From the NCBI GenBank assembly GCA_021847015.1, contig JAJZVW010000018.1, forward strand, positions 2,860 through 66,859: DNA of 64,000 bases, in the 5' to 3' direction. This DNA comes from Pseudomonadota bacterium (lineage in GTDB: Bacteria; Pseudomonadota; Alphaproteobacteria; Rhodospirillales; Magnetospirillaceae). Of this stretch, positions 25,116 through 64,000 are shown in pieces. A program made the position numbers and the translations under genes. Position 1 is the first letter of the stretch, and each line of letters opens with the position of its first letter. The notes below the pieces were generated by a model. The model had not been told where the DNA came from. It was given only the letters and a program-made list of their open reading frames with translations, and searched no databases.

Positions 25116-25574
25116 GTGAGCAAGTCATACTTCGACATCGTCAGACTGATCGAGCGCCTGCACCGGCACTTCCTCGACGTCCTCCGGGCCGAGCTTCGAC
25201 ACCGCGGGACCGAGGAGGTCAACGCCGTCCAGGCCCTTCTTCTTTACAATATCGGCGAAAACGAAGTCGTGATCCGCGATTTGAAGGACCGCGGCTATTA
25301 CCAGGGATCGAATGTTTCCTACAACATCAAGTCCCTCACCGAGTCGGGCTACCTCATGCAGGAACGTTCCCCCCACGACCGCCGGTCGGTGCGCCTCAAG
25401 CTCACCGATAAGGGAATGGACCTGTGCAACGCCATCCGCGCCCTTCAGGACGAACTGGCGGCCACCATCGGCGCCGAGATGAACGGTCAGTTGGAAAGCA
25501 CGGTCGCCACCATGCAGCGGCTGGAACGCACCTGGACCGACTTCATTCACTACGGACGGCCCCGGGCCCCGTGA
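25116..25574 (+). CDS. MarR-type winged-helix transcriptional regulator
   Basis: NAVQALLLYNIGENEVVIRDLKDRGYYQGSNVSYNIKSLTESGYLMQERSPHDRRSVRLKLTDKG is the MarR wHTH pattern. GTG start. Confidence 0.8.
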   Translation: MSKSYFDIVRLIERLHRHFLDVLRAELRHRGTEEVNAVQALLLYNIGENEVVIRDLKDRGYYQGSNVSYNIKSLTESGYLMQERSPHDRRSVRLKLTDKGMDLCNAIRALQDELAATIGAEMNGQLESTVATMQRLERTWTDFIHYGRPRAP

Positions 25575-26520
25575 TCGGCGTGTTGTCGGGACAGGCGTTG
25601 CGGTAACCGATCCCGACCGTTTCGCTTGGCGCGAAATCGCCCCCCGGCGGATCGCCGACGGTGATGCTTCCACGATAGGGCAGGTGCGGCCAGCTTATGC
25701 CGTTTCCCCGCCGAACCGCGCCGATGCGCAGCAGCGACGCCTTGGGCCAGACGGTGTATTCCTGCGCCGCCTGGCCCGGTCGCTCGGTGGCGTAGACGTG
25801 ATCGAGGGCGATCGGGAACGGCTTCTCCAAAATCGAATCCAGGAACCAGTACTGGTAGGTATAGCGGTCCACGGGCTGGCCGTCGGTGTAGCGGATGTTG
25901 ACGTTTTCGAGATCGGCCGACCGGGTGGCGTGCTGCGGTGGAATGAAGAGCCCCTCGTAACCTGTGGTGCCGCTGACGTTGTAGAAGCGCAGGCGCCCGA
26001 CATCCCCCTGGGTCTGCACCATGTCGCCGTGAACGCCCATCCTGTGGCCCGAGATGTTGACGATCCGCGTATTCTGCACGGTAAGGTCGGCGTGGCGGCC
26101 CGGGGCGCTGTAAATGTCGATTCCGTCCCGCTCGCCGGCATCCGCGTTGTCGATCAGCGCTCCTTCGACGTGGACCGCGCCGGAAACGCCGGCGAAATAC
26201 AGTGTCCCTGTGGCCGGTCCCTGCGGCCGGTATTCCCCCCCCAGCACGACGATGTTACGCCCGCCCTCGGTTTGCAGCCGCCGCAGTGTTCGCGGCGTGG
26301 AGGCCCCCAGGAACACCACGTCCTGATCGGGCTCGAAGTGCCACCAGTCGCGGTCCCCGGTCTTGTCGAGGTCGATAATCGTCGGGTTTTTCAACTTCGG
26401 AAACGGCCATTTCATCTGGCAGGCGGGTGGCGGACGGTCTCCCGCCTCGGGCGGCGCCCCAGCGGCGGCGGCGGTCAGCGTCAGCATGCATGCGGCGGGG
26501 ATGGCGAAGCGTGCGGTCAT
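25543..26520 (-). CDS. Exported single-module protein of an unassigned (beta-helix-like) domain family; paralog of the modules in 61663..>64000
   Basis: Sec-type signal MTARFAIPAACMLTLTAAAAGAPP. The body aligns block by block with the modules of the giant gene: NPTIIDLDKTG, QDVVFLGAS, GGRNIVVLGGEY, VEGALIDNADAGERDGIDI, VQNTRIVNISG, HGDMVQTQGDVG, TTGYEGLFIPPQ, VWPK, ISWPHLPYRGSITVGD. Lies directly downstream of the TadE-like genes on the same strand. Confidence 0.85.
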   Translation of the reverse strand: MTARFAIPAACMLTLTAAAAGAPPEAGDRPPPACQMKWPFPKLKNPTIIDLDKTGDRDWWHFEPDQDVVFLGASTPRTLRRLQTEGGRNIVVLGGEYRPQGPATGTLYFAGVSGAVHVEGALIDNADAGERDGIDIYSAPGRHADLTVQNTRIVNISGHRMGVHGDMVQTQGDVGRLRFYNVSGTTGYEGLFIPPQHATRSADLENVNIRYTDGQPVDRYTYQYWFLDSILEKPFPIALDHVYATERPGQAAQEYTVWPKASLLRIGAVRRGNGISWPHLPYRGSITVGDPPGGDFAPSETVGIGYRNACPDNTPITGPGAVRSE

Positions 26521-26592
26521 CGGCGGCCCTCCGCCGGCCATATGGCCCGAGAGGCCCCTGGCGGCGAGAGGACGTGCGGATGAGGCGGCCGG

Positions 26593-42687: not shown

Positions 42688-43656
42688 GTGCTGGACGAAC
42701 CGACATCAAGGGGGTCACCGATGGTCTTGCCTGTCAAAACGAACGATCTCTTCCCATGGGCCGCGCCACGGCCCCGCGTCGCGCGCCTGCCCGGCGCGGC
42801 GGCGCTGTTCGCCGCAATCCTGTTCGGGGCGTCGCCGCCGGCCGAGGCGGCCGACGACGGCACCGACGGCGATTATCTCAGCCAATGGTTCGACCGGGTG
42901 GACAAGACCCAGGCCGAACAGCCGCACTGGATGACGCCGATGGTCACCGTCACGCCCCGCCTTGAGGAAGAGGTGCGTTATGACCAGAACTGGCAGCGGC
43001 TGCCGCACAACGGCGCCACGCTCACCAATTTCGACGGCGGCAAGGGCCTTGAGCTGATTCCGGCCGAGAGGGTCGAGGTGCTGATCAACGCGCCGCCCTA
43101 CCAGGATCGGAGCTGGAACGGAAAGACCAGCCCGCAGGTCAACGGCTTCGGCGATTGGCCATTCCTTACCGTCAAGTACCGCATCGCGGCGGAAAACGAG
43201 CAGAACGGCAATTACATCGTCACCGCCTTCCTGGGGGCCAGCGCGCCCACCGGCAACGATGCCTTCACCAACCACCAGTACGTCGTCACCCCGACCATCG
43301 CCGCCGGCAAGGGATGGGGGAATTTCGACGTCCAATCGACGCTGTCCTACAACGTCCTGACCGGCCGCGGCGCCTCCGTGGCCCCGGTGGCGCCGGCCGT
43401 CGCCTCGAACACCGCCTTCCAGTACCATCTCGGCCAATACTTCTGGCCGGAGTTCGAGGTCAACTACAGCTACTGGTACGAGGGCGAGCGAGTCGGCCTC
43501 CACCAGGTACTTTTGACCCCCGGCGTGATCGTCGGCCGCTTCCCCATCTACGGCCGCCTGAAGCTGGTCGCCGGGCTCGGCTACCAGATCGCGGTGACGC
43601 CCACGATGCCCACCTACCGCAACAACCTGATCGCCACGGTGCGGGTGCCGTTCTGA
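42688..43656 (+). CDS. Outer-membrane beta-barrel protein (transporter/MetA-pathway-like family, tentative)
   Basis: Signal peptide ending PPAEAADD, alternating amphipathic strands and a C-terminal TVRVPF. The start is uncertain (42688 or MVLPV at 42721). Confidence 0.65.
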
Positions 43657-48170: not shown

Positions 48171-48173
48171 GGC

Positions 48174-49903: not shown

Positions 49904-51523
49904 TCACGCCTCCCGCATCTCGGGCGGGGCGCGGAAGGAAAAGGCTGCGGGAGCGGCCATGACCGAGGCGCGGGCCCGCGCGAAGCGGGCGCGGAGGCCG
50001 TCCGGAAGGTGGGAGGTCCCGCCCGCCGCGCGCGCGATCTCCAGCAGGGACGGCATCCCCTTCTCGCCCCCGTCGACCTCGGCCCCGCCCCGCTCGGCCG
50101 CTTGCAGCAGCGCCCGGACCAGCGCCTGCTTGGCCGCCACCACCTCCTTGCGGGCCGCATCCAGGGCCTCGTCCTTCCCGGCGTCCGCGAACAGCGTCAC
50201 CCGGTGGTGCGGGTCGATGCCGTGGGGCGACAGGTGGCCGTAAGCGGAAATCTCGACGTCGACGGAGCCCGCGAACCGGCTGGCCAGCGCGCCGATGGTC
50301 TCGCGATACTCGGCATAGGCGCCCAGGATGTCGGCGATGGTTCCCGTCTCGGCCGGCGCCCGCACGTTCACGTCGGTCGAGGCCGTCCAGGGTTTGAGCC
50401 GCCCCTCGGGCTGAACGCGGGCGCGGGTGCGCGCCAAATCCGGCGCGGCTTCGCGGATCGCCCGGAAGGTGTCCATTTCGGCACCCGACGAAAACCCGAC
50501 GCCGAATTCGATGGTCACGCCGCCAATGGTCTCCGTTTCGGGGTCCATCAGGCTGAACAGCACGTCGTCCACCGACAGTCCGGACCAGCCGGTCAGGCAG
50601 GCGAGCATGTCCGCCCCGGCGTATTCGCAGGACTGCAACAGGCCCTGGGCCTTGGTGCGGGCCGGCTCCTGCGCCTGGGCGATGAACGCCTCAAGGGAAT
50701 CCCGGCTGACCAGCTCGATGCCGTTCACCACGGTCTCGCCGTCCAGGCCGGCGCCCGCGGCCGGAAGCGCGATCCTGGTCCACGGCTCGATATAGGCCAG
50801 CAGGCCGGCCATGGTGTCCACGTCGCTGCCCTGGATCGGCAGCACCAGCCCGAACTCGTTGGCGGGCACGCGGAAGAAGCGCAGCACCGCCGCCGCCACC
50901 ATGCCGGTCCAGCCCTGCATTCCCTCGACGGTGTCGATGGCATCGCCGCCAACCAGACGGGGCTCGCCGCCGTCCGCCACCACGACCGCCTCCAGCGTCG
51001 CCGACGGCCGCAGGCGCAACGGTCCCATGCCGCCGGTGGCCACCACGCCGCCAACGTAGGCCGACCCCACGCTGGTGAGGTCCACCATGACGCGGGCGCC
51101 CGGCCCCAGGACCTCCGCCAGCGCGGCATCGACCTGGGCGAAAGTGAGGCCGGCGCCCGCGGCCACCAGCCCGCGTTCGGCGTCGATGGCCACCTGGTGG
51201 CTGGCCAGGAGGTGCGGGGGAGTGGCCGGATCGATTATTTCGGCGGCCAGCGCGCCCTTGGGACGGACGGCAACCACGTCGCGGAAGCCGGCCACGCGGT
51301 CGGGCGCATAGTCGAACGACCCGATGGCGCTGGTCAGCCCGCCGGCCGGCATCACCGCGTAGCCCTGGCGTACGGCATCCGCCACCGCCGAGGCGATGTC
51401 GGCGGTCACCAGCAGCAGGGCATCGAGCCGGCGCCCCCCGTCATCGACCAGTTCGGCACGGTGAAGGCTAGCGAAATCAATGGCTTGCGTGGATACCGAG
51501 GTCATGGGGCCGGCTTGGTCCAA
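49904..51523 (-). CDS. FAD-binding (PCMH-type) oxidoreductase, GlcD/D-lactate dehydrogenase-like
   Basis: 539 aa. N-terminal FAD_binding_4-like blocks ([39 protein letters not shown]). The assignment is tentative. Confidence 0.65.
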   Translation of the reverse strand: MDQAGPMTSVSTQAIDFASLHRAELVDDGGRRLDALLLVTADIASAVADAVRQGYAVMPAGGLTSAIGSFDYAPDRVAGFRDVVAVRPKGALAAEIIDPATPPHLLASHQVAIDAERGLVAAGAGLTFAQVDAALAEVLGPGARVMVDLTSVGSAYVGGVVATGGMGPLRLRPSATLEAVVVADGGEPRLVGGDAIDTVEGMQGWTGMVAAAVLRFFRVPANEFGLVLPIQGSDVDTMAGLLAYIEPWTRIALPAAGAGLDGETVVNGIELVSRDSLEAFIAQAQEPARTKAQGLLQSCEYAGADMLACLTGWSGLSVDDVLFSLMDPETETIGGVTIEFGVGFSSGAEMDTFRAIREAAPDLARTRARVQPEGRLKPWTASTDVNVRAPAETGTIADILGAYAEYRETIGALASRFAGSVDVEISAYGHLSPHGIDPHHRVTLFADAGKDEALDAARKEVVAAKQALVRALLQAAERGGAEVDGGEKGMPSLLEIARAAGGTSHLPDGLRARFARARASVMAAPAAFSFRAPPEMREA

Positions 51524-51674
51524 CGGGAAGGCGCCGACAATAGCACCAACGATGGGCCGGGAAAAACCCTCGATGCGCCCTCGCTCACGCTCTCATTCCG
51601 ACCGAGCGCGAGCGGGAGGAGGGATCGTTCACGCAGGGTGCCGGAACGGTCCTTCGGCGGCGCCGGAGCCAACC

Positions 51675-52973
51675 TCAGCGCAAGAGGCCGTCGAGGGCGT
51701 AGATGATCACCCCCACCACCCCGCCCACCAGCGTGCCGTTGATGCGGATGTACTGGAGGTCCTTGCCGACCTGCACTTCCAGCTTCGACACCAGGGTCCG
51801 GGAATCCCAGCGGGCGACCACGCCGGCGATGAAGGCGCCGATCTCGCCGCGGTTGGGGATGATGTAGCGATCCACCCCGCGCCGCACCCATCGGTTGAGA
51901 ATGGACTGCATCCGCGCATCCTCCCTGAGCCGGCCGCCCAGCGCCAGCAGCGCCTCCTCCAGCCCGCGGCGCAGCACGCCGCCGTCGTCGTTGATGTCCC
52001 GTACCAGCCGCGCCTTTATCTCGGCCCACAGGGAATCGAGGTAGTCCTCCAACAGGGGATTGGCGAGGACCTCCGCCTTGATGGCCTCGCCGCGGGCGCG
52101 AAGCGCCTCGTCGGTGGCGAGCCGGCGGATGAACTCCTCGACGGCCGACTGGAACTCGCCCCGCCAAGCGTGATCGGGGGCGCGGAGTTCATGGACCGTC
52201 TCCAGCAGACCGTTCATCACCTTGTCGGCCAGCTTCTCATCGACCCACTTGGGAAGCCATTTCCAGCTCCGGGTGGACACCTTGGCCCGAATCACCCCCT
52301 CGTTGCGGATCAGGAAGTCCTCGGCGGCGGCGATGCCTTGGTCGAACAGGGCCTGATGGTGGCCATGGGCGACCAGCACCGACAGCACGCGCGCCGCCAG
52401 CGGCGACACCGCCACCGATTCGACCCCGCGGCGCATGACCCCGCGCACGAAATAGCGGACGTCGTCCTCTTCGAGCGCCGCCAGCATCGGAGGAAGAACA
52501 CCGGCCAGGCGCTTGGCGAGGAACGCCGCGTTGGCGCGGTCGCACAGCCAGTCGGCGACCTTGGTGGCCGCTTCCATGCTGTCGATCCGGTGCGCCACCA
52601 CCTCGGGCGCCAGGAAGTTGTTGCAGATGAACGAGCCCAGCGAATCGCCGATGCGCTCCTTGTTCTTGGGAATGATGGCGGTGTGCGGGATCGGCACCCC
52701 GAACGGATGGCGGAACAGCGCGACCACCGCGAACCAGTCGGCGCACGCGCCCACCATCCCCGCCTCGGCGAAGGCGCGCACGAAAGCCAGGCCGGGCCAG
52801 CGCGCCATCAGCATCGTGGTCGCCACGAACACCGCCAGCATGGCCACCAGCAGGCCCGTGGCCAGGGCGCGCATGCGCCCCAGTTCCATGAGCCGCTGGC
52901 GCGTCCGCTCGTTGACCGCGGCTGCATCGAGCAGCCGCGCCACCTCCTTGGATTTGCCCAATGGCGCCGCCAT
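51675..52973 (-). CDS. DUF445 family membrane protein
   Basis: CADWFAVVALFRHPFGVPIPHTAIIPKNKERIG is the DUF445 signature. The C-terminal NGTLVGGVVGVIIY is a TM segment. Confidence 0.85.
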   Translation of the reverse strand: MAAPLGKSKEVARLLDAAAVNERTRQRLMELGRMRALATGLLVAMLAVFVATTMLMARWPGLAFVRAFAEAGMVGACADWFAVVALFRHPFGVPIPHTAIIPKNKERIGDSLGSFICNNFLAPEVVAHRIDSMEAATKVADWLCDRANAAFLAKRLAGVLPPMLAALEEDDVRYFVRGVMRRGVESVAVSPLAARVLSVLVAHGHHQALFDQGIAAAEDFLIRNEGVIRAKVSTRSWKWLPKWVDEKLADKVMNGLLETVHELRAPDHAWRGEFQSAVEEFIRRLATDEALRARGEAIKAEVLANPLLEDYLDSLWAEIKARLVRDINDDGGVLRRGLEEALLALGGRLREDARMQSILNRWVRRGVDRYIIPNRGEIGAFIAGVVARWDSRTLVSKLEVQVGKDLQYIRINGTLVGGVVGVIIYALDGLLR

Positions 52974-53016
52974 ATCATCCTCTGGGAAAGATCGTCAACG
53001 CCGGTTCCGGACCATC

Positions 53017-54201
53017 ATGCGCGACGGCAACGGCCGCAGGAGCATCGCGGTGCTCAACCGCATCGCCGACATCGCGTCGGCGGAGTGGGACGCCTGCGCG
53101 GGAACCGACACCCCATTCGTCACGCACGCCTTTCTCGAGGCGCTCGAAAGCTCCGGCTCGGCGGCCGCAAAGACCGGCTGGCTTCCTCGGCATTTGGTGG
53201 TGCGCGACTCCGGCGGCAAGGTGGTGGGCTGCGCGCCATTGTATCTCAAGAGCCATTCCCTGGGTGAATACGTGTTCGATTGGGGCTGGGCCGATGCCTA
53301 TGAGCGCGCGGGGGGTAGCTATTATCCCAAGCTGCAATGCGCCGTCCCCTTCACCCCCGTCACCGGCCCGCGGCTGATGGTGCGGGCCGGCGAAGCGCCG
53401 GAGCCGGTCGTGCAGGCCCTGACCGGCGGCCTGCTCGCGCTGGCGCGGGACATGGCGGTGTCGTCCCTGCACGTCACCTTCCCCACCGGCGCCGAGGCCC
53501 TGCGGCTGGAGAGGGCCGGTTTCCTGCTGCGCCTCGGCTACCAGTACCACTGGGAGAACCGGGGCTACGGAAGCTTCGACGATTTCCTCGCCGCCCTGTC
53601 GTCGCGCAAGCGCAAGCAGGTGCGCCGCGAGCGCGACGCGGTAGCGGCCGGCGGGTTGCGCCTGACCACCCTGGCCGGCGGCGAGGTGACGGCGCGGCAC
53701 TGGGACGCCTTCCACCGCCTTTATCGCGCCACAACCGGCCGCAAATGGGGCGAGGCCTATCTGACACGCCCGTTCTTCGAACGGCTGTCGGCATCGGCCC
53801 TGGGAGACAGGGTGGTGCTGATGATGGCCTATGACGGCGGCACGCCGATCGCCGCCGCCTTCAGCATGCTGGGCGGCGACACCCTGTTCGGCCGCAACTG
53901 GGGCGCGGCCGGCGAGGTGCCGTTCCTGCATTTCGAGCTGTGCTACTACCGGGCGCTGGATTTCGCCATCGCCCACGGCCTCAAGCGCGTCGAGGCCGGC
54001 GCCCAGGGCGAACACAAGGTCAGCCGCGGCTACCGGCCCGCCGCCACCTGGTCCGCCCACTGGATCGCCGACCCGGCGTTCCGGACGCGAATCGCCCACT
54101 TTCTCGCCGACGAGCGGCCGCTGGTGGCGGAGGACATGGCCGAACAGGCGGCCGCCGGCCCCTACCGCCGCGACACTCCCTATTCCAGTTCGATGGAGTA
54201 A
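53017..54201 (+). CDS. GNAT-fold N-acetyltransferase-like protein (DUF482/FemAB-like)
   Basis: SAEWDACAG..PFVTHAFLEALESSGS...GWLPRHL...SLGEYVFDWGWADAYERAG..YYPKLQCAVPFTPVTGPR is the conserved alphaproteobacterial DUF482 pattern. The ATG at 53017 is in frame with the track ORF. Confidence 0.8.
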   Translation: MRDGNGRRSIAVLNRIADIASAEWDACAGTDTPFVTHAFLEALESSGSAAAKTGWLPRHLVVRDSGGKVVGCAPLYLKSHSLGEYVFDWGWADAYERAGGSYYPKLQCAVPFTPVTGPRLMVRAGEAPEPVVQALTGGLLALARDMAVSSLHVTFPTGAEALRLERAGFLLRLGYQYHWENRGYGSFDDFLAALSSRKRKQVRRERDAVAAGGLRLTTLAGGEVTARHWDAFHRLYRATTGRKWGEAYLTRPFFERLSASALGDRVVLMMAYDGGTPIAAAFSMLGGDTLFGRNWGAAGEVPFLHFELCYYRALDFAIAHGLKRVEAGAQGEHKVSRGYRPAATWSAHWIADPAFRTRIAHFLADERPLVAEDMAEQAAAGPYRRDTPYSSSME

Positions 54202-54419
54202 TTCTCGATCACGGTGTTGGCGAGCAGCGACTTGCACATCTGCTCGACCGACGCGCGCGCCTTGTCGCGGTCGGTCTCGTCCAGCGTCATCTCGATGTAC
54301 TTGCCTTGCCGAACGTCGCCGACGCCGGAGAACCCCAGCGAAGCCAGAGCGTGCCCGACCGCCTTGCCCTGGGGATCAAGCACGCCGTTCTTCAAAGTGA
54401 TGTGGACCTTGGCCTTCAC
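54180..54419 (-). CDS. purS: Phosphoribosylformylglycinamidine synthase subunit PurS
   Basis: 79 aa: (V->M)KAKVHITLKNGVLDPQGKAVGHALASLGFSGVGDVRQGKYIEMTLDE. GTG start at 54419 with AGGAG upstream. Embedded in the spurious long track ORF 54180..55370. Confidence 0.9.
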   Translation of the reverse strand: MKAKVHITLKNGVLDPQGKAVGHALASLGFSGVGDVRQGKYIEMTLDETDRDKARASVEQMCKSLLANTVIENYSIELE

Positions 54420-54436
54420 GTCGTCGCTCCTCATCC

Positions 54437-55201
54437 TCACTGCATGGTCTGGGGACCTTTGAGGTCCCTGGGGCCGCCCTCGGGCAGGATGCCGAGGCGG
54501 CGGGCAACTTCCTGGTAGGCTTCCTCGACGTTGCCGAGGTCGCGGCGGAAGCGGTCCTTGTCCATCCGCTCGCCGGTCTTGATGTCCCACAGGCGGCAAT
54601 TGTCGGGGCTGATCTCGTCGGCCAGGATGATCTGCATGTCGTCGCCCGTGTAAAGGCGCCCGAACTCGACACGGAAATCGACCAGCCGCAATCCGGTGCC
54701 CAGGAACAGGCCCGACAGGAAATCGTTGATGCGCAAGGCAAGCGACATGATCTCGTCGAGATCCTGGGTGGTCGCCCAGCCGAAGGCGGTGATGTGCTCT
54801 TCGCTGACCATGGGGTCGTCCAGCGCGTCGGACTTGAAATAGTACTCGACGATGGAGCGCGGCAGCGGCGTGCCTTCCGACAGGCCGAACCGCTGGGCCA
54901 GGGACCCCGCGGCGACGTTGCGCACCATCACCTCCAGCGGGATGATCTCCACCTCGCGAACCAATTGCTCGCGCATGTTGAGGCGGCGCACGAGATGGGT
55001 GGGAATGCCCATCTCGCCCAGCTTCAGCATGAGATATTCGCTGATCCGGTTGTTCAGCACGCCCTTGCCGGTGATGGTGCCCTTCTTCTTGTTGCTGAAG
55101 GCCGAGGCATCGTCCTTGAAGTACTGGACCAGGGTGCCGGGCTCGGGGCCTTCGAACAGGACCTTGGCCTTGCCTTCGTATATCTGCCTGCGTCTGGCCA
55201 T
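54437..55201 (-). CDS. purC: SAICAR synthase (canonical short form)
   Basis: [35 protein letters not shown]...[14 protein letters not shown]...LVDFRVEFG...[18 protein letters not shown] at 55201. Confidence 0.95.
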
Positions 55202-55344
55202 GGGGTGCACCGGATGAGAAAGCGCGCATGGCGCGCGGGGGGAGTGGGCGGGATGCGCGGAAGGCGCGGAAACAGTCCGCACGAGCACGCCCCGCCGGAT
55301 CGAACAGATTTGATATAGCAGGGAAGACCGGGGGTGACAACGTG

Positions 55345-55627
55345 CGCACGGATCGTGCAGCGGTTCTCATTATGCGGCATCAGGGCATGTTGTCATCCCG
55401 AGGGAGCGGAGCGACTGCGGGATCCTTCACGCGAAAGTGCCTGAAAGATCCCTCGCCGTCGGCTCGGGATGACAGCGAAAAATGCATAATGAGAACCGCT
55501 GCGGATCGTGCCGGCCGTTCTCATTATGCGGCATCGGGGAACATTGTCATCCCGAGGAGCGTAAGCGACGGAGGGATCTTTCGGGCGGGGTGCCTGAAGG
55601 ATCCCTCGCCTGCGGCTCGGGACGGCA
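55345..55627. repeat. Composite repeat cluster: two REP/MITE-like copies (E 55391..55474, F 55545..55627) nested with a second inverted/direct repeat (CGGTTCTCATTATGC)
   Basis: E: TGTCATCCCGAGG...GTGCCTGAAAGATCCCTC...GGCTCGGGATGACA. F: TGTCATCCCGAGG...GGAGGGATCTTTCGGGC..GTGCCTGAAGGATCCCTC...GGCTCGGGACGGCA. GCAGCGGTTCTCATTATGCGGCAT at 55358 recurs inverted at ~55484 and direct at ~55515. Confidence 0.8.
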
Positions 55628-55657
55628 CCAAGACACCTCAAGATGAATTGCCGCAGG

Positions 55658-56419
55658 TCACCCCGGCAATCCGGTTGCGACCGGGAGGTAGGGAACCGCT
55701 CCCGGCCGGCCGGCGGCGAACAGCCAGACCGGCTCCGCCCCCTCCGCCTCGGGCGCCGGCAGCCCGATGAGGGCCGAAGACACCGTGCCGAAGCCGTCCG
55801 GGCGGACAAAGGTCATGGCCGCCACCTCCTCGCCATCGGCGGACGTGCCGGCATCGGCCATCAGGTCTTGCCACGCCGTCCACTGGCCCGCGCCGGGATC
55901 GGGGATGGCGGCGGCGCGGAAGCGGGGCAGATAGGCGCTCACACGCGGGCTGGCGGTGTCGTCGATGTCGAGGGCGGTGAGCATGTGCAGGCCCGCCCCG
56001 ATCGGCCGCACCTCCACCCTCGCCCCGCCCGCGCCCCTGATCCAGTACGCGTCCCTGTTGTCGGCGACCACCAGATTGAACGGCCGCCACGCCCGCCCGT
56101 CGAGATGCGCCAGCGCGTCGGCCGCCACCGCGGCATCGGCGTGATCGAGGGCTTCCAGCACCAATTCCCCGCGCGAGCGCTTGCCGGCCGCCGGACCGAG
56201 ACTGCCCATCCGATTGAGGATCGCGGCGACGACCCCGTAATCGTTCATCCCCAACCAGCTACCCCCGGCCAGGTCATCCCGGCCGGCGACCACCTCGGGC
56301 CGGTCCGGCCAATGGCGCGCGGGGGACGACCACGGGCGGGCGGCCATTTCGTCGCGGTTGGCGGCGATCAGGACAGGCCAACGTTCCGTCGGACGCCGCA
56401 GAAGGACAAGCGTGCACAT
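55658..56419 (-). CDS. NRDE-family protein (DUF833 / TANGO2-like)
   Basis: MCTLVLLRRP...PVLIAANRDE...GGSWLG is the NRDE family N-terminal signature. Confidence 0.85.
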   Translation of the reverse strand: MCTLVLLRRPTERWPVLIAANRDEMAARPWSSPARHWPDRPEVVAGRDDLAGGSWLGMNDYGVVAAILNRMGSLGPAAGKRSRGELVLEALDHADAAVAADALAHLDGRAWRPFNLVVADNRDAYWIRGAGGARVEVRPIGAGLHMLTALDIDDTASPRVSAYLPRFRAAAIPDPGAGQWTAWQDLMADAGTSADGEEVAAMTFVRPDGFGTVSSALIGLPAPEAEGAEPVWLFAAGRPGAVPYLPVATGLPG

Positions 56420-56536
56420 CGGCCAAAATCCCTTTCCTCGGAGCCGGGAAAGACAGTTATAACACCTCGGCGAGAGTTGGGGCCTGCGCCGGGGACTACC
56501 ACCTTATATGCCGAAAGCACGGGGATGTGGGACGCC

Positions 56537-56866
56537 ATGACTTTGTTCGATGAGCGTGAAAAGGCGTTCGAGGCGAAATACCGGTTGGATCAGGAAACCG
56601 CCTTCAAGGTCACCGTCCGCCGCGACAAATTGCTGGGCCTGTGGGCCGCCGAGAAGATGGGTCTGACGGCCGACGAGGCCACGGCCTACGCCAAATCCCT
56701 GATCGAGACCGAAATGAGTGCGGGCGCCCACGACGTCGGCCACAAGGTCCTCGAAGATCTTCGGGCCCGCGATGTCGCCATTGAAGAGGATGACCTGAGG
56801 ACGCGGATTTCCACCATCCACGAAATCGCCCAGCAGCAAGTCGTCGCGGAGACCGCCGGCCGCTAG
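56537..56866 (+). CDS. DUF1476 protein (alphaproteobacterial F1-ATPase inhibitor zeta-subunit family)
   Basis: MTLFDEREKAFEAKYRLDQETAFKVTVRRDKLLGLWAAEKMGL..DEATAYAKSLIE is the typical DUF1476 pattern. An alternative ATG lies at 56525. Confidence 0.8.
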   Translation: MTLFDEREKAFEAKYRLDQETAFKVTVRRDKLLGLWAAEKMGLTADEATAYAKSLIETEMSAGAHDVGHKVLEDLRARDVAIEEDDLRTRISTIHEIAQQQVVAETAGR

Positions 56867-57043
56867 CAGGCTGTTGAAAAAGTCGGTCTTTTCAACCGTC
56901 ACCCCCGCGAAAGCGGGGGGCCATGCCTCCGCGAATACAAAATATAGCGGATAAGCCTGCTCTTTCGGCCCAACATTGACCCCCGCTTTCGCGGGGGTGA
57001 CGAAAAAGCGGGGGTGAAAAATGCTTTTTCAACAGCCTGCTAG
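56863..57043. repeat. 181-bp MITE-like element with perfect 20-bp terminal inverted repeats
   Basis: Left end CTAGCAGGCTGTTGAAAAAG (56863-56882) is the exact reverse complement of the right end CTTTTTCAACAGCCTGCTAG (57024-57043). An internal inverted pair GTCACCCCCGCGAAAGCGGGGG / CCCCCGCTTTCGCGGGGGTGAC is present. The left TIR contains the TAG stop of the preceding gene. Confidence 0.8.
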
Positions 57044-57199
57044 TGCACCGACCTTCCGAATGTGTCGGCACACAATTCATTGATTTTGTGGGCCGGCGCA
57101 AACCCGAAATTTCCTTTCGTCATGGCCGGACTTGATCCACGGCTGTCCGGCACGGGCATGACGGCAATGGCGGATGCCGTACCTGTTGAAAGAGCCATC

Positions 57200-58045
57200 C
57201 TACCATCCCCCCTCCAGGAAGCGTTCCACCACGTCGAGCTGGGACGGCACGTTCAGGGCCGGCGCGTGGCCGCAGCCGGGCACCGTCACCAGACCGGCCC
57301 GGGGCCCGCGCCGGGTCATGGCCCCGGCGACCTCGGGCGTCAGCATGTCCGATTCGGCCCCCCGCAGCACCAGCACCGGGCAGGCCAGGCCGTCGTACGC
57401 CTCCCACAGGTCGGGGGTCTGGCCGGCTTGGGCGAAGACCTGGACGATCCTGGGATCGTAATGGACGGTGATGCGCCCGTCGTCGCGCCGCCGCGCCGAG
57501 GTCTCGGCCATCCGCCGCCATTCGGCGTCGGTCAAGGCTCCGAAGGGGGCGTAGACGCGGCGCAGGAACGCCTCGTAGGCGACGACGCCGTCGAAATCGG
57601 GAATGTGGCCGCCATAGGTCCGGATGCGTTCGACCGCCGCCGGATCGATCACCGGCCCGATGTCGTTGAGCACCAGCCGCGCGATGCGCCCACGCAATGG
57701 CCCGGCGGCGGCGGCCATGCCGATCAGGCCGCCCATCGACGTCCCCACCCAGGCGCAGATCGCCACCCCCAGCGCGTCGAGCAGGGAAGCCGCCAGGTGC
57801 ACGTAGCCGGACAGGGTGTAGTCGCGCTCGGGCGCGGCCGACCAGCTGGACAGGCCGCGGCCGATGGTGTCGGGGCACAGCACGCGGAAGCGCTCCGCCA
57901 GCCGGGCGGCCGCGGTATCGAAGTCGCGCCCCTGGCGCACCAGGCCGTGCGCCATCACCAGCGCCGGGGATGCCGGATCGCCCCATTCGGTCACATGGAT
58001 CTCGTGGCCGGCGAGGGAGAAATAGAGCGAGCGGAAACCGATCAT
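57200..58045 (-). CDS. Alpha/beta-fold hydrolase
   Basis: 281 aa from the ATG at 58045: HVTEWGDPASPALVMAHGL, nucleophile elbow WVGTSMGG, C-terminal PGCGHAP. The upstream 396 codons of track ORF 57200..59233 are antisense to gabD. Confidence 0.9.
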   Translation of the reverse strand: MIGFRSLYFSLAGHEIHVTEWGDPASPALVMAHGLVRQGRDFDTAAARLAERFRVLCPDTIGRGLSSWSAAPERDYTLSGYVHLAASLLDALGVAICAWVGTSMGGLIGMAAAAGPLRGRIARLVLNDIGPVIDPAAVERIRTYGGHIPDFDGVVAYEAFLRRVYAPFGALTDAEWRRMAETSARRRDDGRITVHYDPRIVQVFAQAGQTPDLWEAYDGLACPVLVLRGAESDMLTPEVAGAMTRRGPRAGLVTVPGCGHAPALNVPSQLDVVERFLEGGW

Positions 58046-58144
58046 GAGCGCAGCCTTTCCGGGAGGAGCCACCGGGAGTATATCTGCGCCACGCTTCCCC
58101 GTGTCATCCCGCGGAGGATGACGCCCCAACCCCGGACGGATGCC

Positions 58145-59602
58145 ATGCCCGACCTCAGCGATCCCAAGCTCTTGCGCTCGCAGGCCTATATCGGCGGAGA
58201 ATGGGTGGCGGCCGAGAGCGGCCGCACCTTCGCCGTGACCAACCCGGCCGACGGCGCCGTTCTGGGGCGGGTGCCGGCCATGGGCGCCGCCGAAACCCGC
58301 CGCGCCATCGAGGCGGCGGAACGGGCTTGGCCGGCCTGGCGCTCCAAGACCGCCAAGGAGCGGGCCGCCATCCTCAGACGCTGGTACGAGCTGATCATGG
58401 CCGCGCAGAAGGACTTGGCGGTGCTGATGACCGCCGAGCAGGGCAAGCCCTTGGCCGAGGCCATGGGCGAAGTGGCCTATGGCGCGGCCTTCATCGAATG
58501 GTTCGCCGAGGAGGCCAAGCGCACCTACGGCGATGTCATCCCCGAAAACGCCCCCGGCCGGCGCATCGTGGTGACCAAGGAACCGGTGGGCGTGGTGGCG
58601 GCGATCACGCCCTGGAACTTCCCCAACGCCATGATCACCCGCAAATGCGCCCCGGCGCTCGCGGTCGGTTGCACGGTGGTGATCAAACCGGCCGAGGACA
58701 CGCCGCTGTCGGCGCTGGCCTTGGCGGATTTGGCCGGGCGGGCGGGCATGCCGGCCGGTGTCCTCAATGTGGTGACCACCGACGACCCGGCCACCGTGGG
58801 CGCCGAACTGACGGGCAACCCGGCGGTGCGCAAGCTGTCCTTCACCGGCTCGACCGAGATCGGCAAGCTCTTGATGAGGCAATGCGCCGACACGGTGAAG
58901 AAGGTCAGCCTGGAACTGGGCGGCAACGCGCCCTTCATCGTCTTCGACGATGCCGACCTGGACGCGGCGGTGACCGGGGCCATCGCCTCGAAATACCGCA
59001 ACACCGGCCAGACCTGCGTGTGCGCCAACCGGCTTCTGGTGCAGGCCGGCGTCTACGACGCCTTCGCCGAAAAGCTGGCGGCGGCGGTGGCCAAGCTGAC
59101 GGTGGGCCCCGGCCTGTCGGGAGAGACCCAGCAGGGGCCGCTGATCAACGCCCAGGCGGTGGAAAAGGTGGAGGCCCACATCGCCGACGCCCTGGCCAAG
59201 GGCGCGCGGGTCATCACCGGCGGCAAGCGCCACGCGCTGGGCGGCACCTTCTTCGAGCCGACCATCCTGGCCGACGTCACGCCGGCCATGCTGTGCGCCC
59301 GCGAGGAGACCTTCGGCCCGGTCGCCCCCCTGTTCCGCTTCGGCACCGAGGACGAGGCGATCCGCACGGCCAACGACACCCCCTACGGCCTCGCCGCCTA
59401 TTTCTACAGCCGCGACGTCGGCCGGGTGTGGCGGGTGTCCCGCGCCCTGGAATACGGCATCGTCGGCATCAACGAGGGCATCATCTCCACCGAAATCGCC
59501 CCTTTCGGCGGCATGAAGGAATCCGGCATCGGCCGCGAGGGCTCGAAATACGGGGTGGAGGCGTTCCTGGAGATCAAGTACCTGTGCATGGGCGGGGTGT
59601 GA
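58145..59602 (+). CDS. gabD: NAD(P)+-dependent succinate-semialdehyde dehydrogenase
   Basis: 485 aa: YIGGEWV...FAVTNPADG...ITPWNFP...KVSLELGGNAP...NTGQTCVCANR...EETFGP. Aldehyde dehydrogenase catalytic Glu/Cys motifs with GabD-like overall sequence. Confidence 0.95.
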   Translation: MPDLSDPKLLRSQAYIGGEWVAAESGRTFAVTNPADGAVLGRVPAMGAAETRRAIEAAERAWPAWRSKTAKERAAILRRWYELIMAAQKDLAVLMTAEQGKPLAEAMGEVAYGAAFIEWFAEEAKRTYGDVIPENAPGRRIVVTKEPVGVVAAITPWNFPNAMITRKCAPALAVGCTVVIKPAEDTPLSALALADLAGRAGMPAGVLNVVTTDDPATVGAELTGNPAVRKLSFTGSTEIGKLLMRQCADTVKKVSLELGGNAPFIVFDDADLDAAVTGAIASKYRNTGQTCVCANRLLVQAGVYDAFAEKLAAAVAKLTVGPGLSGETQQGPLINAQAVEKVEAHIADALAKGARVITGGKRHALGGTFFEPTILADVTPAMLCAREETFGPVAPLFRFGTEDEAIRTANDTPYGLAAYFYSRDVGRVWRVSRALEYGIVGINEGIISTEIAPFGGMKESGIGREGSKYGVEAFLEIKYLCMGGV

Positions 59603-59651
59603 GAAGCGGCGCCGCCCTCGCCTCCGGCCGGGATTTTCCGGTTTCCGCGAA

Positions 59652-59790
59652 TGTCATTCCCAATCTCTCAGGCACCCTGCCCGAAAGGCCCCTCGGCTGC
59701 GCTCGGGGCGACAAATCCCTTTTGTCATCCCGACCAAGCGCAGCGCGCGGAGGGATCTTTCACGCACCGTGCTCCTCGGGCCGCAAGTGA
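59652..59790. repeat. Two degenerate REP/MITE-like copies (G1 59652..59713, G2 ~59723..59790)
   Basis: TGTCATTCCCAATCTCTCAGGCACC...GCTCGGGGCGACA and TGTCATCCCGACC...GGAGGGATCTTTCACGCACC. Confidence 0.7.
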
Positions 59791-59804
59791 AGGGGGCTAT
59801 CGCC

Positions 59805-59999
59805 ATGTCGTTTGACGTTCTCGCCACCATCATGGGCGATATCGCCGATCAGGCGGAGGCCGAACGGCTGGCTCGCGACATCGCGGGCGTGGTCGCCCGC
59901 GCGCGGGCGCGGGGATGCATCGTCGATATCCGGGACCTGCGCCTGGGCCGGGAATTGCGGCGGACCATCGTGCCGCCCGGCGGTCCACGGTCCGAATAG
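59805..59999 (+). CDS. Small hypothetical protein (weak call)
   Basis: 64 aa: MSFDVLATIMGDIADQAEAERLARDIAGVVARARARGCIVDIRDLRLG... A purine-rich stretch lies upstream. No family recognised. Only positional and coding-like support. Confidence 0.35.
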   Translation: MSFDVLATIMGDIADQAEAERLARDIAGVVARARARGCIVDIRDLRLGRELRRTIVPPGGPRSE

Positions 60000-60006
60000 C
60001 GGACGA

Positions 60007-61320
60007 TCATCCCCGGCCGAACACGCGCTTGAAAATGGTGTCCACGTTCTTGGTGTGGTAGCCGAGGTCGAACAGCTCCTCCAACTGGGCGGAGGGCAGG
60101 TGCCGGGACACATCGGCATCGGCCTTCAGCAGGTCGAGGAAGCTCGCCCCCTTGCCCCACACCTCCATGGCGTTGCGCTGGACCGCCCTGTAGGCGTCCT
60201 CGCGGCTCATGCCCGCCTGGGTCAGCGCCAGCAGCACCCGCTGGGAAAAGACGAGGCCGCCCAACTGGTTGAGGTTGCGCTCGCACGCCTCGGGATAGAC
60301 CACCAGCTTATCGACCACACCGGCGAGGCGGGCCAGGGCGAAATCCAGGGTCACGGTGGAATCGGGGCCGATCATGCGCTCGACCGAGGAATGGGAGATG
60401 TCGCGCTCGTGCCACAGGGCGACGTTTTCCAGGGCCGGCATCACCATGCCGCGCACCAGCCGGGCGAGGCCGGTGAGATTTTCGGTCAGGATCGGGTTGC
60501 GCTTGTGGGGCATGGCCGAGCTGCCTTTCTGGCCGGGCGAGAAATATTCCTCGGCCTCGCGCACCTCGGTGCGCTGCAAATGGCGGAACTCGGTGGCGAC
60601 CCGCTCGATGGAGCTGGCGATCACCCCCAGGGTGGCGAAGAACTGGGCGTGGCGGTCGCGGGGGATGACCTGGGTGGACACCGGCTCGGGCCTCAACCCC
60701 AGCTTGCCCGCCACCCATTCCTCGACGAAGGGGTCGATGTTGGCGAAGGTGCCGACCGCACCCGAAATGGCGCAGGTGGCGATGTCGGCCCGCGCCGCCC
60801 TAAGGCGCTCGCGGTTGCGCTGGAATTCGGCGTGGAACGAGGCGAATTTCAGGCCCATGGTCACCGGCTCGGCATGGATGCCGTGGCTGCGCCCCATGCA
60901 CACCAGATCCTTGGTCTCGAACGCGCGCCGCTCCAGATTGGCCAGCAGACGGTCGATGTCGGCGAGAAGGATGTCCGACGCCTGCGCCAGTTGCACCGCG
61001 AGGCAGGTGTCGAGCACGTCCGACGATGTCATGCCCTGATGGATGAACCGCGCCTCGGCGCCGACCTGTTCGGCCAGTTCGGTAAGGAAGGCGATGACGT
61101 CGTGCCTGGTCTCCCGCTCGATGTCGTCGATGCGGGCGATACGTTCGGCCGTGTAGGGCTTGTTCCCGTTGCGCCAGACCGCCTCTGCCGCCGCCTTGGG
61201 AATCACTCCCCGCTCGGCCAGGGCGTCGCAGGCATGGGCCTCGATCTCGAACCAGATGCGGAACTTGTTGGCGGGCTCCCAAATGGCGGCCATCTGGGGG
61301 CGGCTGTAGCGGGGGATCAT
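60007..61320 (-). CDS. purB: Adenylosuccinate lyase
   Basis: MIPRYSRPQMAAIWEP..KF..WFEIEAHA...GMTSSDVLDT...GRSHGIHAEP...GQKGSSAMPHKRNP (fumarate-lyase signature). ATG at 61320. Confidence 0.95.
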   Translation of the reverse strand: MIPRYSRPQMAAIWEPANKFRIWFEIEAHACDALAERGVIPKAAAEAVWRNGNKPYTAERIARIDDIERETRHDVIAFLTELAEQVGAEARFIHQGMTSSDVLDTCLAVQLAQASDILLADIDRLLANLERRAFETKDLVCMGRSHGIHAEPVTMGLKFASFHAEFQRNRERLRAARADIATCAISGAVGTFANIDPFVEEWVAGKLGLRPEPVSTQVIPRDRHAQFFATLGVIASSIERVATEFRHLQRTEVREAEEYFSPGQKGSSAMPHKRNPILTENLTGLARLVRGMVMPALENVALWHERDISHSSVERMIGPDSTVTLDFALARLAGVVDKLVVYPEACERNLNQLGGLVFSQRVLLALTQAGMSREDAYRAVQRNAMEVWGKGASFLDLLKADADVSRHLPSAQLEELFDLGYHTKNVDTIFKRVFGRG

Positions 61321-61662
61321 GGACACCTCTGGCGAACTGCGGATGGACCGGGCCGGTTGGCGGACGCGCAACTGGGCGGCGCATTCTTCGCCGACGCGGC
61401 CGGGCTGTCAACGGCGGTTGGCCCTTGGCGCAAAGCTGAGGATCGAAACAATCGTTCGATAATACCGCTATCAAAAACGATGCTGACGACTACCACAAAT
61501 GGCCACACGCCACGTTGCGTTCATGTTTTCGCCACATTTCATTATGCCATCATAAACTAACACTAAAGATGTTTTACTGCGCTTTACCTTCGGTTAATCG
61601 TTCCTGCGCAATTCTTTCCTCGCCTCCAGCCCCCCCAAACAGCAACAGATAAGAGAGTTTCT

Positions 61663-64000
61663 ATGGCGACGAGCAGCACTTCAACCACCGTTACGACGCA
61701 AGCGCCGCTAATGTATGCGCCGCCGACGATGAACAGCCCGACGATCGTCGACCTGGCGAAAACGGGCGGCCAGACGACGTGGAATTTTTCCTCCACCCAG
61801 GATGTCGTCTTCATCGATTCGGCCCATACGGCGCTGAATCTGCCGAGCATCAAGATCCAGGGCGGCCACAACATCGAAGTCCTCGGCATCGACATGAAGA
61901 CGGCTCCCGGCAAGACGGGCGCCCTGATGTTCTATGGCGTGACCGGCACGGCTTATGTTGATGGCGTGCACATCGACAACAGCAAGGCCTCGGGCACCGA
62001 CGGAATCGACATCGCCGGCGGTGCGAAAACCAGCCTGGTGATCCAGAACTCCAGCATCGAGAACGTCAACGGCGCCAAGACGGGCGGACAGGCCGCGGGC
62101 GGCAACGGTCACGCCGACGCGCTTCAGACGCACGGCCCCGTCGGCGGGGAGATCAATCTCTACAACGTGCATATGAGCACGAACTACCAGGGCATCTTCC
62201 TCGCGCCGCAATACGGCAGCACCCCTGGCACCAACGAGCCGTCCGCTCTCAACCTGACGAACGTCGATCTGCACTATACGGGTCCGACCGACAACAACGG
62301 CAATTCGCACAGCTACCTGCTCTGGACCGTCGATGGGCCGAGCGAAAACGCCTATCCCGTGACGTTCAACAACGTCTATGTCGCACCGCGTGCGGGACAG
62401 GACGCCGGAACCCTCGCGGTCTGGCCGACGACGAACGCGGGCCAGACCAACAGCAAGATGGCGGCCCACGAAAGCGGCAACTCCATCACGTGGCCGGGCC
62501 TTCCCTACACGGGCTCGGTGACGGTCGGCGATCACGCGTCCTTCACGGATTCGTCGAAGATCGGCACGAACTTCGCCGACACCCAGGCCATCCTCGACGC
62601 CTCCACCAAGGGGACGCCGGTTGCGACCAACGGCGGTGCCAGCGCGTCGTCCCCGGCCACTCCGCCGCCAAGCGCCACGTCCGCATCCGCGCCCGCGACC
62701 TCGACCGACACCACCCACACCGGCACGTCGGCCACGGATCCCGCCGCCAGCACCGGCTCGTCGTCCGCCACTCACGCGCCGAGCCCCACGGCTCCGTCCG
62801 CGCCCGCATCCACCGCCTCGGCCGACACCACCCACACCGGCACGTCGGCCACGGCCCCCGCCGCCGGCACCGGATCGTCGTCCGCCACTCATTCGGCCGG
62901 CGCCACGGCTCCGTCCACAGCCGCGTCCCCGGCCTCAGCCGATACCACCCACACGGGCACGGCGGCCGCAACGACGTCTGCCTCCCACACCGCCGAGATG
63001 CCGCTCAAGTGGGCGCCGCCGACGATGAACAATCCGACGATCGTCGATCTGGCCAAGACCGGCAGCCAGACCTACTGGAACTTCGCCAACAATCAGGACG
63101 TCATCGTCATCGACTCGGCGCACACGACCGTGAACCTGCCCAAAATCCAGTTCCAGGGCGGGCATAACATCGAGGTTCTCGGCATCGACATGCAGACGGC
63201 TCCCGGCCAGACGGGCGCCATCCAGTTCGACGGCATCACCGGTACGGCCTTCGTCGACGGCGTGCATATCGACAACAGCAAGGCGTCGGGAACGGACGGC
63301 ATCGACATCGCCGGCGGCAACAACGGCAAAGGCGTCAGTCTGATCGTCCAGAACACCAGCATCGAGAACGTCAACGGCGCGTACTCGGGAGGCCAGGCCT
63401 CCAACAGCAACGGACATGCGGACGGGATTCAAATGCAGGGCCCGGTCGGCGGCGCCCTCAACCTGTCCAACGTCCACATCACCACGAACTACGAGGGCCT
63501 CTTCCTCGCGCCGCAATACAGCACCGCGCCGTCCTCGGCGACGTTCAGCAACGTCGATCTGCACTACACCAGCGCGGCGGCGAACGACGGGTCGCACACC
63601 ACCTACCTGCTCTGGACGCTCGACGGCGGGAACGAGAAGCCTTACCCGATCACGTTCGACAACGTCTACGTGCAGCCACGCGCCGGCCAGCAGGCCATCG
63701 AATCGGCCGTGTGGCCCAAGGCGGAAGGCGGCGCCGTCCAGAACGGCGACCAGATCAGCTGGCCCAACCTGCCCTATAAGGGCAGCGTCACGGTCGGCGA
63801 TCACGCCTCGTTCGCCGACACTTCGAAGATCGGGGTGCACTTCGCCGACACCCAGGCCATCATCGACGCTTCCTCCAGCGGGACGTCGGTCGCAACCTCG
63901 GGCGGTTCGAGCGGCCCGGCCGGCAGCGCCTCCGCAACCACCGCCACCGACCCCGGCACGACGACCGGCTCGGCGGCCTCGACCCCGGCCACGGCCGCGC
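61663..64000 (+). CDS. Large modular repeat protein, N-terminal 779 codons (continues beyond right edge; absent from supplied ORF track)
   Basis: Own translation: the ATG at 61663 opens a frame with no stop to 64000. Two ~300-aa modules (nt 61705-62610 and 63001-63880) repeat with a 1296-nt period, and a Thr/Ser/Ala/Pro-rich linker follows each of the two modules. Third-position GC and the in-frame duplication support coding on the plus strand. Minus-strand track ORFs 61708..62892 and 62935..63840 are shadows. Confidence 0.85.
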   Translation, partial: MATSSTSTTVTTQAPLMYAPPTMNSPTIVDLAKTGGQTTWNFSSTQDVVFIDSAHTALNLPSIKIQGGHNIEVLGIDMKTAPGKTGALMFYGVTGTAYVDGVHIDNSKASGTDGIDIAGGAKTSLVIQNSSIENVNGAKTGGQAAGGNGHADALQTHGPVGGEINLYNVHMSTNYQGIFLAPQYGSTPGTNEPSALNLTNVDLHYTGPTDNNGNSHSYLLWTVDGPSENAYPVTFNNVYVAPRAGQDAGTLAVWPTTNAGQTNSKMAAHESGNSITWPGLPYTGSVTVGDHASFTDSSKIGTNFADTQAILDASTKGTPVATNGGASASSPATPPPSATSASAPATSTDTTHTGTSATDPAASTGSSSATHAPSPTAPSAPASTASADTTHTGTSATAPAAGTGSSSATHSAGATAPSTAASPASADTTHTGTAAATTSASHTAEMPLKWAPPTMNNPTIVDLAKTGSQTYWNFANNQDVIVIDSAHTTVNLPKIQFQGGHNIEVLGIDMQTAPGQTGAIQFDGITGTAFVDGVHIDNSKASGTDGIDIAGGNNGKGVSLIVQNTSIENVNGAYSGGQASNSNGHADGIQMQGPVGGALNLSNVHITTNYEGLFLAPQYSTAPSSATFSNVDLHYTSAAANDGSHTTYLLWTLDGGNEKPYPITFDNVYVQPRAGQQAIESAVWPKAEGGAVQNGDQISWPNLPYKGSVTVGDHASFADTSKIGVHFADTQAIIDASSSGTSVATSGGSSGPAGSASATTATDPGTTTGSAASTPATAA
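62707..62975 (+). repeat. 117-bp (39-codon) tandem repeat, ~2.3 copies, inside the linker of the modular protein
   Basis: GACACCACCCACACCGGCACGTCGGCCACGG starts at 62707 and again at 62824. A related GATACCACCCACACGGGCACGGCGGCC starts at 62941. It encodes repeats of ADTTHTGTSAT...GSSSATH...APS. Confidence 0.85.

Follow-up and report, generated by a model that had tools for sequence, protein, structure and literature searches.

A two-module gene of an undescribed, predicted beta-helix family in a Magnetospirillaceae contig, with a candidate role in polysaccharide processing

We analysed a 64,000-nt stretch of a Magnetospirillaceae assembly (GCA_021847015.1, contig JAJZVW010000018.1, positions 2,860 to 66,859), called here the window, and in it the gene that starts at an ATG at 61663 on the + strand and runs over the end of the stretch at 64000. 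This gene, the target, encodes two diverged copies of one domain, the module, which no database model that we compared could name. With confidence only a little above even, we read its product as a leaderless, secreted and two-headed polysaccharide-active enzyme of an undescribed beta-helix family that would leave the cell by a C-terminal signal resembling those of type I secretion. In this reading the extracellular enzyme of 1035 aa would carry its two catalytic-domain copies on extended Ala/Thr/Ser/Pro linkers. Each module would hold a polysaccharide chain in a groove whose walls present conserved Asp, His, Gln, Asn and Tyr as a ladder on successive coils, and the chain would be cleaved or modified there, a bacterial exopolysaccharide (EPS) or capsule being the likeliest substrate. 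The protein would exit by means of an uncleaved signal of type I kind in its 110-aa tail, which ends in D-H-W-H.

The open frame from ATG 61663 to 64000 (+) comprises 779 codons without a stop, as a first-pass annotation of this DNA had claimed, and it was missing from the track of open reading frames (ORFs) for the sole reason that it continues past the window. The preceding in-frame stop is at 61567, with no ATG, GTG or TTG in frame between it and 61663, and a purine-rich, Shine-Dalgarno-like AAGAGAG (61651-61657) stands 5 nt 5' of the start. It belongs to an intergenic region (61372..61662, +) that separates the target from a divergent adenylosuccinate-lyase-like (purB-like) gene (60007-61371, -); a sigma-70 consensus promoter was not found on the + strand upstream of the target. 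Two antisense ORFs (61708-62892 and 62935-63840, -) overlap the frame. We rejected both as genes and regard them as shadows, which the annotation had also done, because the GC content at third codon positions (GC3) of the + frame is 0.86, because the differences between module 1 and module 2 are biased to the third codon position (66/43/115 at positions 1/2/3; 70 of the 290 aligned codons differ synonymously and 92 non-synonymously), and because homologues of the + product number in hundreds.

The true length of the gene became known through an exhaustive profile search of 1.84 billion representative proteins, the top match of which, P0011, a word-indexed homology search with module 1 had missed despite 100% identity. 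P0011 is the full protein: it has 1035 aa, its residues 1-779 are identical to the window ORF, and it holds two profile-matched stretches, the second at 446-740. Its contig (ENA ERZ27237470 k141_319856, 68.6 kb; locus L018) is identical to the window over 51663-64000 and supplies the remaining 256 codons and the stop (L018 12339-13108), after which come a strong terminator (GC-rich hairpin of 13 bp plus T-run, L018 13139-13168) and then a convergent Crp/FNR-type gene. The target gene is identical on 4 independently assembled contigs. It is a real and complete gene of ordinary size with exactly two modules. The expectation of a 'giant' gene with more modules beyond the window did not hold, since in P0011 the two modules are followed by linker, tail, stop and terminator.

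The protein begins with 14 residues, MATSSTSTTVTTQA (61663..61704, +), which are rich in Thr and Ser, contain no hydrophobic signal segment and resemble the beginnings of the close homologues. Module 1 (aa 15-316; 61705..62610, +) comes next, and is joined by linker 1 (aa 317-445; 62611..62997, +; 82% Ala/Thr/Ser/Pro) to module 2 (aa 446-745; 62998..63897, +). At 63898, near the point at which the annotation had put it, linker 2 starts and fills the window to 64000 (+); in the full protein it covers aa 746-925, is 80% Ala/Thr/Ser/Pro and has repeats of 111 nt. The C-terminal tail (aa 926-1035, 110 aa) lies on the same strand beyond the window, is rich in Ala, His and Leu and ends in THDHWH.

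The duplication proposed at first pass is real, and all the motif blocks quoted for it are present in the translation. The modules are 68-69% identical at the amino-acid level, with 9 and 12 gap positions in their alignment, and direct-repeat analysis found nucleotide blocks that are 71-80% identical. The spacing of these blocks, which had been given as exactly 1,296 nt, is so over the first 300 nt and then, owing to indels, changes to 1305, 1290 and 1269. A neighbour-joining tree put both modules into one clade with the single-module protein P0001 (89% bootstrap); the order inside this clade was weak, module 2 and P0001 being paired at 59%. Pairwise identity was 69% between the two modules and 70% between module 2 and P0001. 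We rejected a recent tandem duplication, as the modules have diverged by 31% and the tree does not place them nearer to each other than to P0001. Despite this divergence both modules retain all columns in which the close family shows no variation, which together with the tree indicates an apparently old fusion whose two heads have both been maintained. Fusions of this kind are few: only 3 two-module proteins (P0011, P0032 and P0136) were present among the 150 best representatives. The module occurs in arrays of separate genes as well as in fused form. For example, one locus (L023 5648-6445, 7070-7873 and 8487-9281) holds three consecutive single-module genes, the third of which also encodes a carbohydrate-binding module (CBM) of family CBM60.

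The linkers are themselves repetitive. Linker 1 is built of 117-nt (39-aa) units in 2.7 copies (array at about 62656-62967), so that the motif DTTHTGT occurs in it three times at 39-aa spacing. Linker 2 (L018 12236-12775) bears the His-containing motifs DHSGT and DGHTAS; the linkers of P0002, P0004, P0005 and P0007 carry the His motifs THTGS or DHGT, and the tail of the target is His-rich as well. A Pfam match to Mann_GBD_bact (aa 397-519) was rejected as spurious, since its 21.7 bits are under the curated cutoff of 27 and it lies across the low-complexity linker 1.

Searches for a family name gave a uniform answer. With E values of up to 1 allowed, still no model of Pfam, NCBIfam or PHROGs covers the module, and neither phmmer nor a 41-sequence profile found anything beyond chance among all PDB sequences, in agreement with the first reading that the module could be placed in no named family. 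The profiles of the named beta-helix families (Beta_helix, Pectate_lyase_3, Pec_lyase_C, Glyco_hydro_28 and NosD) did not match it. The same was true of its relatives: no Pfam model lay over the module in any of the 102 that were scanned, 118 further relatives had neither a precomputed Pfam match nor a source name for it, and no description of the module family was found in the literature. The word-indexed search returned 10 close homologues (47-62% identity), all of them single-module, 297-512 aa long and unannotated. The exhaustive search returned 843 relatives at E <= 1e-3 (464 at E <= 1e-10), counted as clusters at 50% identity and all unnamed. The nearest module relatives derive from Telmatospirillum and from metagenome-assembled genomes of Rhodospirillales, and in a tblastn search against plasmids only two Skermanella plasmids matched. 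In RefSeq the Skermanella homologues bear the names 'calcium-binding protein' or 'M10 C-terminal domain protein', which refer to their repeats-in-toxin (RTX) parts only. The close family shares the motifs GGHNI, xDGIDI, QN, GHADxxQ, NYQG and PRxGQ, which match no family known to us. As judged against Pfam, NCBIfam, PHROGs and PDB, with CAZy (dbCAN HMMs) outside the comparison, the module thus appears to constitute a widespread and undescribed sequence family.

AlphaFold2 modelling of the module gave a mean predicted local distance difference test (pLDDT) value of 83 with 12 sequences, and of 93, with a predicted template modelling (TM) score of 0.92, with 41. The model is all-beta, with short strands that recur every 22-25 residues. 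Almost all of the top 50 Foldseek matches in PDB and BFVD were right-handed beta-helix carbohydrate enzymes or tailspikes, including polysaccharide lyases (PL) of families PL6, PL1 and PL3, the carbohydrate esterase (CE) family CE8, the glycoside hydrolase (GH) families GH87 and GH28, WceF and AlgE4. These results support a right-handed parallel beta-helix as the predicted fold of the module, its handedness being taken from the Foldseek matches, and they bear out the guess of a beta-helix that had been made from the periodicity of the motifs.

The conservation pattern is what points to catalysis. In 41 sequences that are 27-68% identical, ten residues (D33, D91, D99, Q114, N115, H136, D138, Q141, Y161 and Q162 in module numbering, to which 14 is added for ORF numbering) are 93-100% conserved; the conserved polar residues of module 1 are D105, D113, Q128, N129, H150, D152, Q155, Y175 and Q176 in the ORF. 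D91, Q114/N115, H136-Q141 and Y161/Q162 recur at the spacing of one coil, 22-25 residues, and would thus form a ladder along one face of the helix, as in the catalytic grooves of beta-helix carbohydrate enzymes. Furthermore, the module is fused among the 102 relatives to CBM60, CBM6, CBM35, CBM4_9, CBM96, malectin and F5/8-C domains, and also to fn3, SLH and Ig-like domains, and CBM60 was the commonest precomputed partner among the 118 further matches. Carbohydrate-binding modules usually accompany catalytic domains. Genomic context adds a few cases: P0021 adjoins a Wzz/Wzy/GT2/flippase cluster, P0186, the third of the three consecutive module genes of L023, is about 4 kb from Wzy/GT2/BY-kinase-like genes, and a GH16 gene lies 2 kb from P0094. 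The remaining contexts examined consist of unrelated housekeeping genes, as does that of the target itself. Taken together, conservation, partner domains and context favour a polysaccharide-active enzyme, whether hydrolase, lyase or other, and bacterial EPS is our best guess for its substrate. At the locus of P0021 (L026 3914-12314), this protein, with one module and 33 RTX motifs, is encoded convergently to a complete-looking Wzx/Wzy-type polysaccharide cluster with Wzz/BY-kinase, Wzy, GT2, flippase, MurB-like and EPSP-synthase-like genes.

How such a protein would leave the cell is suggested by its relatives. In the target and its closest relatives the domain begins after 5-14 Thr/Ser-rich residues without a hydrophobic leader, as had been noted at first pass; by a crude measure, the hydropathy maximum of a 10-residue segment within the first 40 aa, the target reaches 0.61, against 2-3.6 in leader-bearing relatives. 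Most of the distant relatives have hydrophobic Sec-type leaders, and so has a single-module paralogue within the window (described below), indicating that the domain probably works outside the cytoplasm. RTX repeats are present in 12/102 relatives, with up to 33 motifs, and a serralysin C-terminal domain in 3/102. The tail of the close subfamily combines an amphipathic segment with an Ala-rich stretch, and close to its end D-H-W is invariant; a tail ending in D-[HFY]-W is found downstream of the RTX blocks in P0012, P0015, P0016, P0037 and P0047. In P0015 and P0016 this ending is located about 55-60 residues past the last RTX block, which is the position and length given for the uncleaved type I secretion signal, i.e. 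about 60 residues at the C-terminal end (PMC3034196). Type I export is in our judgement the best-supported route for the target protein, and the tail would act as its signal. The relatives with RTX repeats and D-[HFY]-W tails fit the non-classical export that had been suggested for it. Nor does the protein resemble an autotransporter (type V), as it has no leader and its C-terminal 110 aa match no Pfam model.

The paralogue (332 aa; 25543..26541, -) was found by tblastn of module 1 (25603-26400, -; 37% identity, E 5e-53) as the third module copy of the window. It starts with a Sec-type leader, MTARFAIPAACMLTLTAAAAGAPP, differs from P0014 at one residue and has no Pfam match. A tadG-tadE-tadF-like operon ends with this gene: about 50 bp upstream of it are two TadE/F-like pseudopilin genes (26593-26979 and 26989-27468, -), whose TadE-like N-termini were read in the translations only; the TadG-like gene (27590-28840, -) matches the Pfam models Tad, Tad_C and TadE. 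The operon stands at the edge of a Tad cluster (about 25-38 kb). The target gene is about 23 kb away from this cluster, and being outside it is not regarded as a Tad (Flp) pilus component. The first-pass annotation had suggested that the module might co-occur with tad loci. This is so for the paralogue and for P0005, which lies 7 kb from a Tad cluster, but at the other searchable loci, including those of the closest relatives of the paralogue, no Tad gene was found within about 10 kb of a module, and we do not uphold a general co-occurrence. Of the 102 family members scanned, one has a Pfam 'Tad' (TadE/G-like) domain (E 1.1e-5); neither a regular expression nor phmmer with the TadE/G N-termini of the window traced that member.

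Several observations weigh against the reading of the target as a type I-exported polysaccharide enzyme. None of the Foldseek matches was significant (best E 0.037, or 0.15 with the better model; TM <= 0.47; 6-16% identity), and no sequence link was found from the module to any GH, PL or CE family. The neighbours of the target are housekeeping genes (pur genes, aldehyde dehydrogenase), with no EPS cluster near. In P0011 there is no GGxGxD-type motif and no HemolysinCabind match. No genes for the ATP-binding cassette (ABC) protein, membrane fusion protein (MFP) or TolC of a type I secretion system (T1SS) were found in the window or in L018, and neither T1SS nor T5SS genes flank the target; nor were any ABC, MFP or TolC genes found beside P0012, P0016, P0021 or the Skermanella homologue. 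In an underpowered comparison, a profile of the tail was run against 5.8 billion proteins and matched a single fragment, which belongs to a family member, and no other passengers. Finally, P0002 has FliD adjacent at 0.7 kb, and FlhB-like, FliO and FliP genes are 4-6 kb from P0008, which makes another export route conceivable.

The last points have an explanation of their own, namely that the protein is a carbohydrate enzyme whose Thr/Ser-rich N-terminus is read by flagellar type III secretion or by some other route; in that case the D-H-W tail would be a docking, anchoring or metal-binding element. T1SS genes are near no family member examined, a short Thr/Ser-rich N-terminus is common to all close homologues, and His is unusually frequent in tail and linkers, all of which agree with it. 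We nevertheless hold this explanation to be quite unlikely. The D-[HFY]-W tail follows RTX repeats in five relatives, i.e. where type I signals lie, and the missing linkage near RTX-bearing relatives is uninformative because T1SS substrates are often encoded apart from their transporter; several PrsDE substrates, for example, are encoded away from prsDE (PMC2275737). The flagellar neighbours are occasional, with unrelated genes in between, so that flagellar linkage was rejected as a rule and kept as a minor rival only.

Catalysis itself may be doubted. If the modules only bind or adhere and do not catalyse, the protein would serve as an adhesin of the surface or matrix or as a polysaccharide-binding scaffold, perhaps acting with Tad pili, comparable to beta-helical autotransporter passengers and fungal beta-helix adhesins. 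The beta-helix is indeed used by adhesins too, and the TibA passenger is among the weak Foldseek matches (rank 48). The position of the paralogue in its pseudopilin operon and that of P0005, the long Thr/Ser/Pro-rich spacers, which are typical of surface-displayed proteins, and the failure of the module to match a catalytic family can all be put on this side. However, the Asp/His/Gln/Tyr ladder remains near-invariant down to 27% identity, which is what would be expected of an active site and not of an adhesin surface, the repeated CBM fusions are of a kind that normally serves catalytic domains, Tad adjacency is missing at every other locus examined, and P0011 has no autotransporter barrel or other anchoring domain. 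We therefore rate an adhesin or scaffold as unlikely. That the protein stays inside the cell, or that the ORF is an unexpressed, decaying fusion of two paralogous genes, seems very improbable. The missing signal peptide and the missing sigma-70-type promoter on the + strand would agree with it, but the gene is identical on the 4 contigs, substitutions between the modules are purifying in pattern, all family-invariant columns are kept in both modules, the gene has a Shine-Dalgarno-like site before it and a strong terminator after it, and its relatives are clearly extracytoplasmic.

The reading of the target as a leaderless, two-headed and type I-exported polysaccharide enzyme thus remains the one that we prefer. 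It could be carried further, to an unrecognised GH or PL family that acts on bacterial EPS, a new, non-RTX class of D-H-W signals for type I export in one Rhodospirillales lineage, a two-headed remodeller of the matrix and a Sec-exported paralogue that serves the Tad pilus; this larger picture is possible, and we regard it as doubtful. Should the module prove catalytic, it would stand for a sizeable, unannotated family of polysaccharide turnover (843 clusters at 50% identity), whose members are called 'hypothetical' or are named after a partner domain in every database compared. Its CBM fusions and occasional EPS-gene neighbours would make it a target in the search for enzymes that remodel biofilm matrix or capsule, and the D-H-W tail, occurring with and without RTX, makes the requirements of a type I signal readily testable.

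Some further observations were made on the surroundings of the module genes. A conserved gene of about 270 aa without Pfam match is divergent from P0001 and from P0008 (L001 8878-9702, - and L004 1991-2797, -), with a Zn-dependent alcohol dehydrogenase gene beside it, and P0005 has a 240-aa gene without Pfam match in the same upstream position. We rejected the gene of about 270 aa as a partner of the target because tblastn found none in the window. About 1.5 kb separate P0012 from a block that resembles a phage tail or gene-transfer agent (GTA) (L021 6012-14516; Phage-tail_3 / Rcc01698_C); the block also encodes a Hydrolase_2 cell-wall hydrolase and a cadherin/Big_9 protein that matches the module weakly. 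In the window, a 152-aa ORF (25116-25574, +), MarR-type winged-helix-like by eye, converges on the Tad-operon paralogue with an overlap of about 30 nt at the 3' end. The Tad cluster is flanked by signalling genes, i.e. for a LuxR-type autoinducer-binding regulator (582-1325, -), a methyl-accepting chemotaxis protein (21652-23445, -) and a REC-PAS-PAS-GGDEF-EAL protein of cyclic di-GMP turnover (45684-48173, -). Two ORFs without Pfam family (42670-43656, + and 3469-4131, -) have coding-like GC by codon position, as has a third with a weak FAD_binding_4 match only (49904-51592, -). The window also encodes an ATPase inhibitor zeta subunit, which is typical of Alphaproteobacteria.

Among known systems, the beta-helix lyases and hydrolases (PL6, as in AlyGC and BcAlyPL6, PL1, PL3, GH87, GH28 and WceF of Pantoea stewartii) share the predicted fold class and are the top Foldseek neighbours of the module. 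They resemble it in the polar catalytic groove along stacked coils, the frequent fusion to CBMs and the acidic or capsular substrates; they differ in that no match is significant and no Pfam or NCBIfam model matches the module, so that neither sequence nor structure search placed it in the solved families PL6, PL1, PL3, GH87 or GH28. A phage tailspike origin was rejected, as there was no PHROGs match, the BFVD matches were weak, the context is housekeeping and there is no prophage.

With RTX and other type I substrates the target shares the missing N-terminal leader, and its extreme C-terminus is common to RTX-bearing relatives; it differs from them in having no GGxGxD repeats and no adjacent ABC/MFP genes. 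To our knowledge, the D-H-W-H ending does not belong to a described signal class. A precedent for non-RTX export exists in PlyA and PlyB of Rhizobium leguminosarum, which two reports describe as EPS glycanases with a C-terminal signal for the type I system PrsDE and as cleaving the acidic EPS of the cell itself (PMC3034196, PMC2275737). The PrsDE secretome further includes a 'parallel beta-helix repeat protein', pRL90140 (PMC3034196, PMC2275737). The likeness of PlyA and PlyB to the target is one of description: they are alphaproteobacterial and leaderless, as is the target. However, plyA adjoins prsDE whereas the target has no transporter genes nearby, and two catalytic modules, as the target would have, are not described for PlyA and PlyB.

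The closest architectural analogue is the mannuronan C-5 epimerase of AlgE1 type, which is likewise modular, secreted and polysaccharide-modifying and has beta-helix A-modules. AlgE-type epimerases are leaderless at the N-terminus and leave the cell by type I secretion. AlgE1 of Azotobacter vinelandii is composed of six modules, two of which are catalytic (PMC12269086). Its spacers are R-modules that contain RTX repeats, whereas those of the target are low-complexity Ala/Thr/Ser/Pro linkers without RTX, and the A-module of AlgE4 (2pyh) compares with the target module at chance level (E 1.1, TM 0.21). No sequence family is shared, and none of the comparisons indicated homology to AlgE1. The predicted fold, the accessory domains and the probable export route of the target are all of familiar kinds, and it is the sequence family that is undescribed. 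Current understanding is not overturned by it; the target would extend the theme of secreted beta-helix polysaccharide enzymes, of which AlgE1 is the nearest in architecture.

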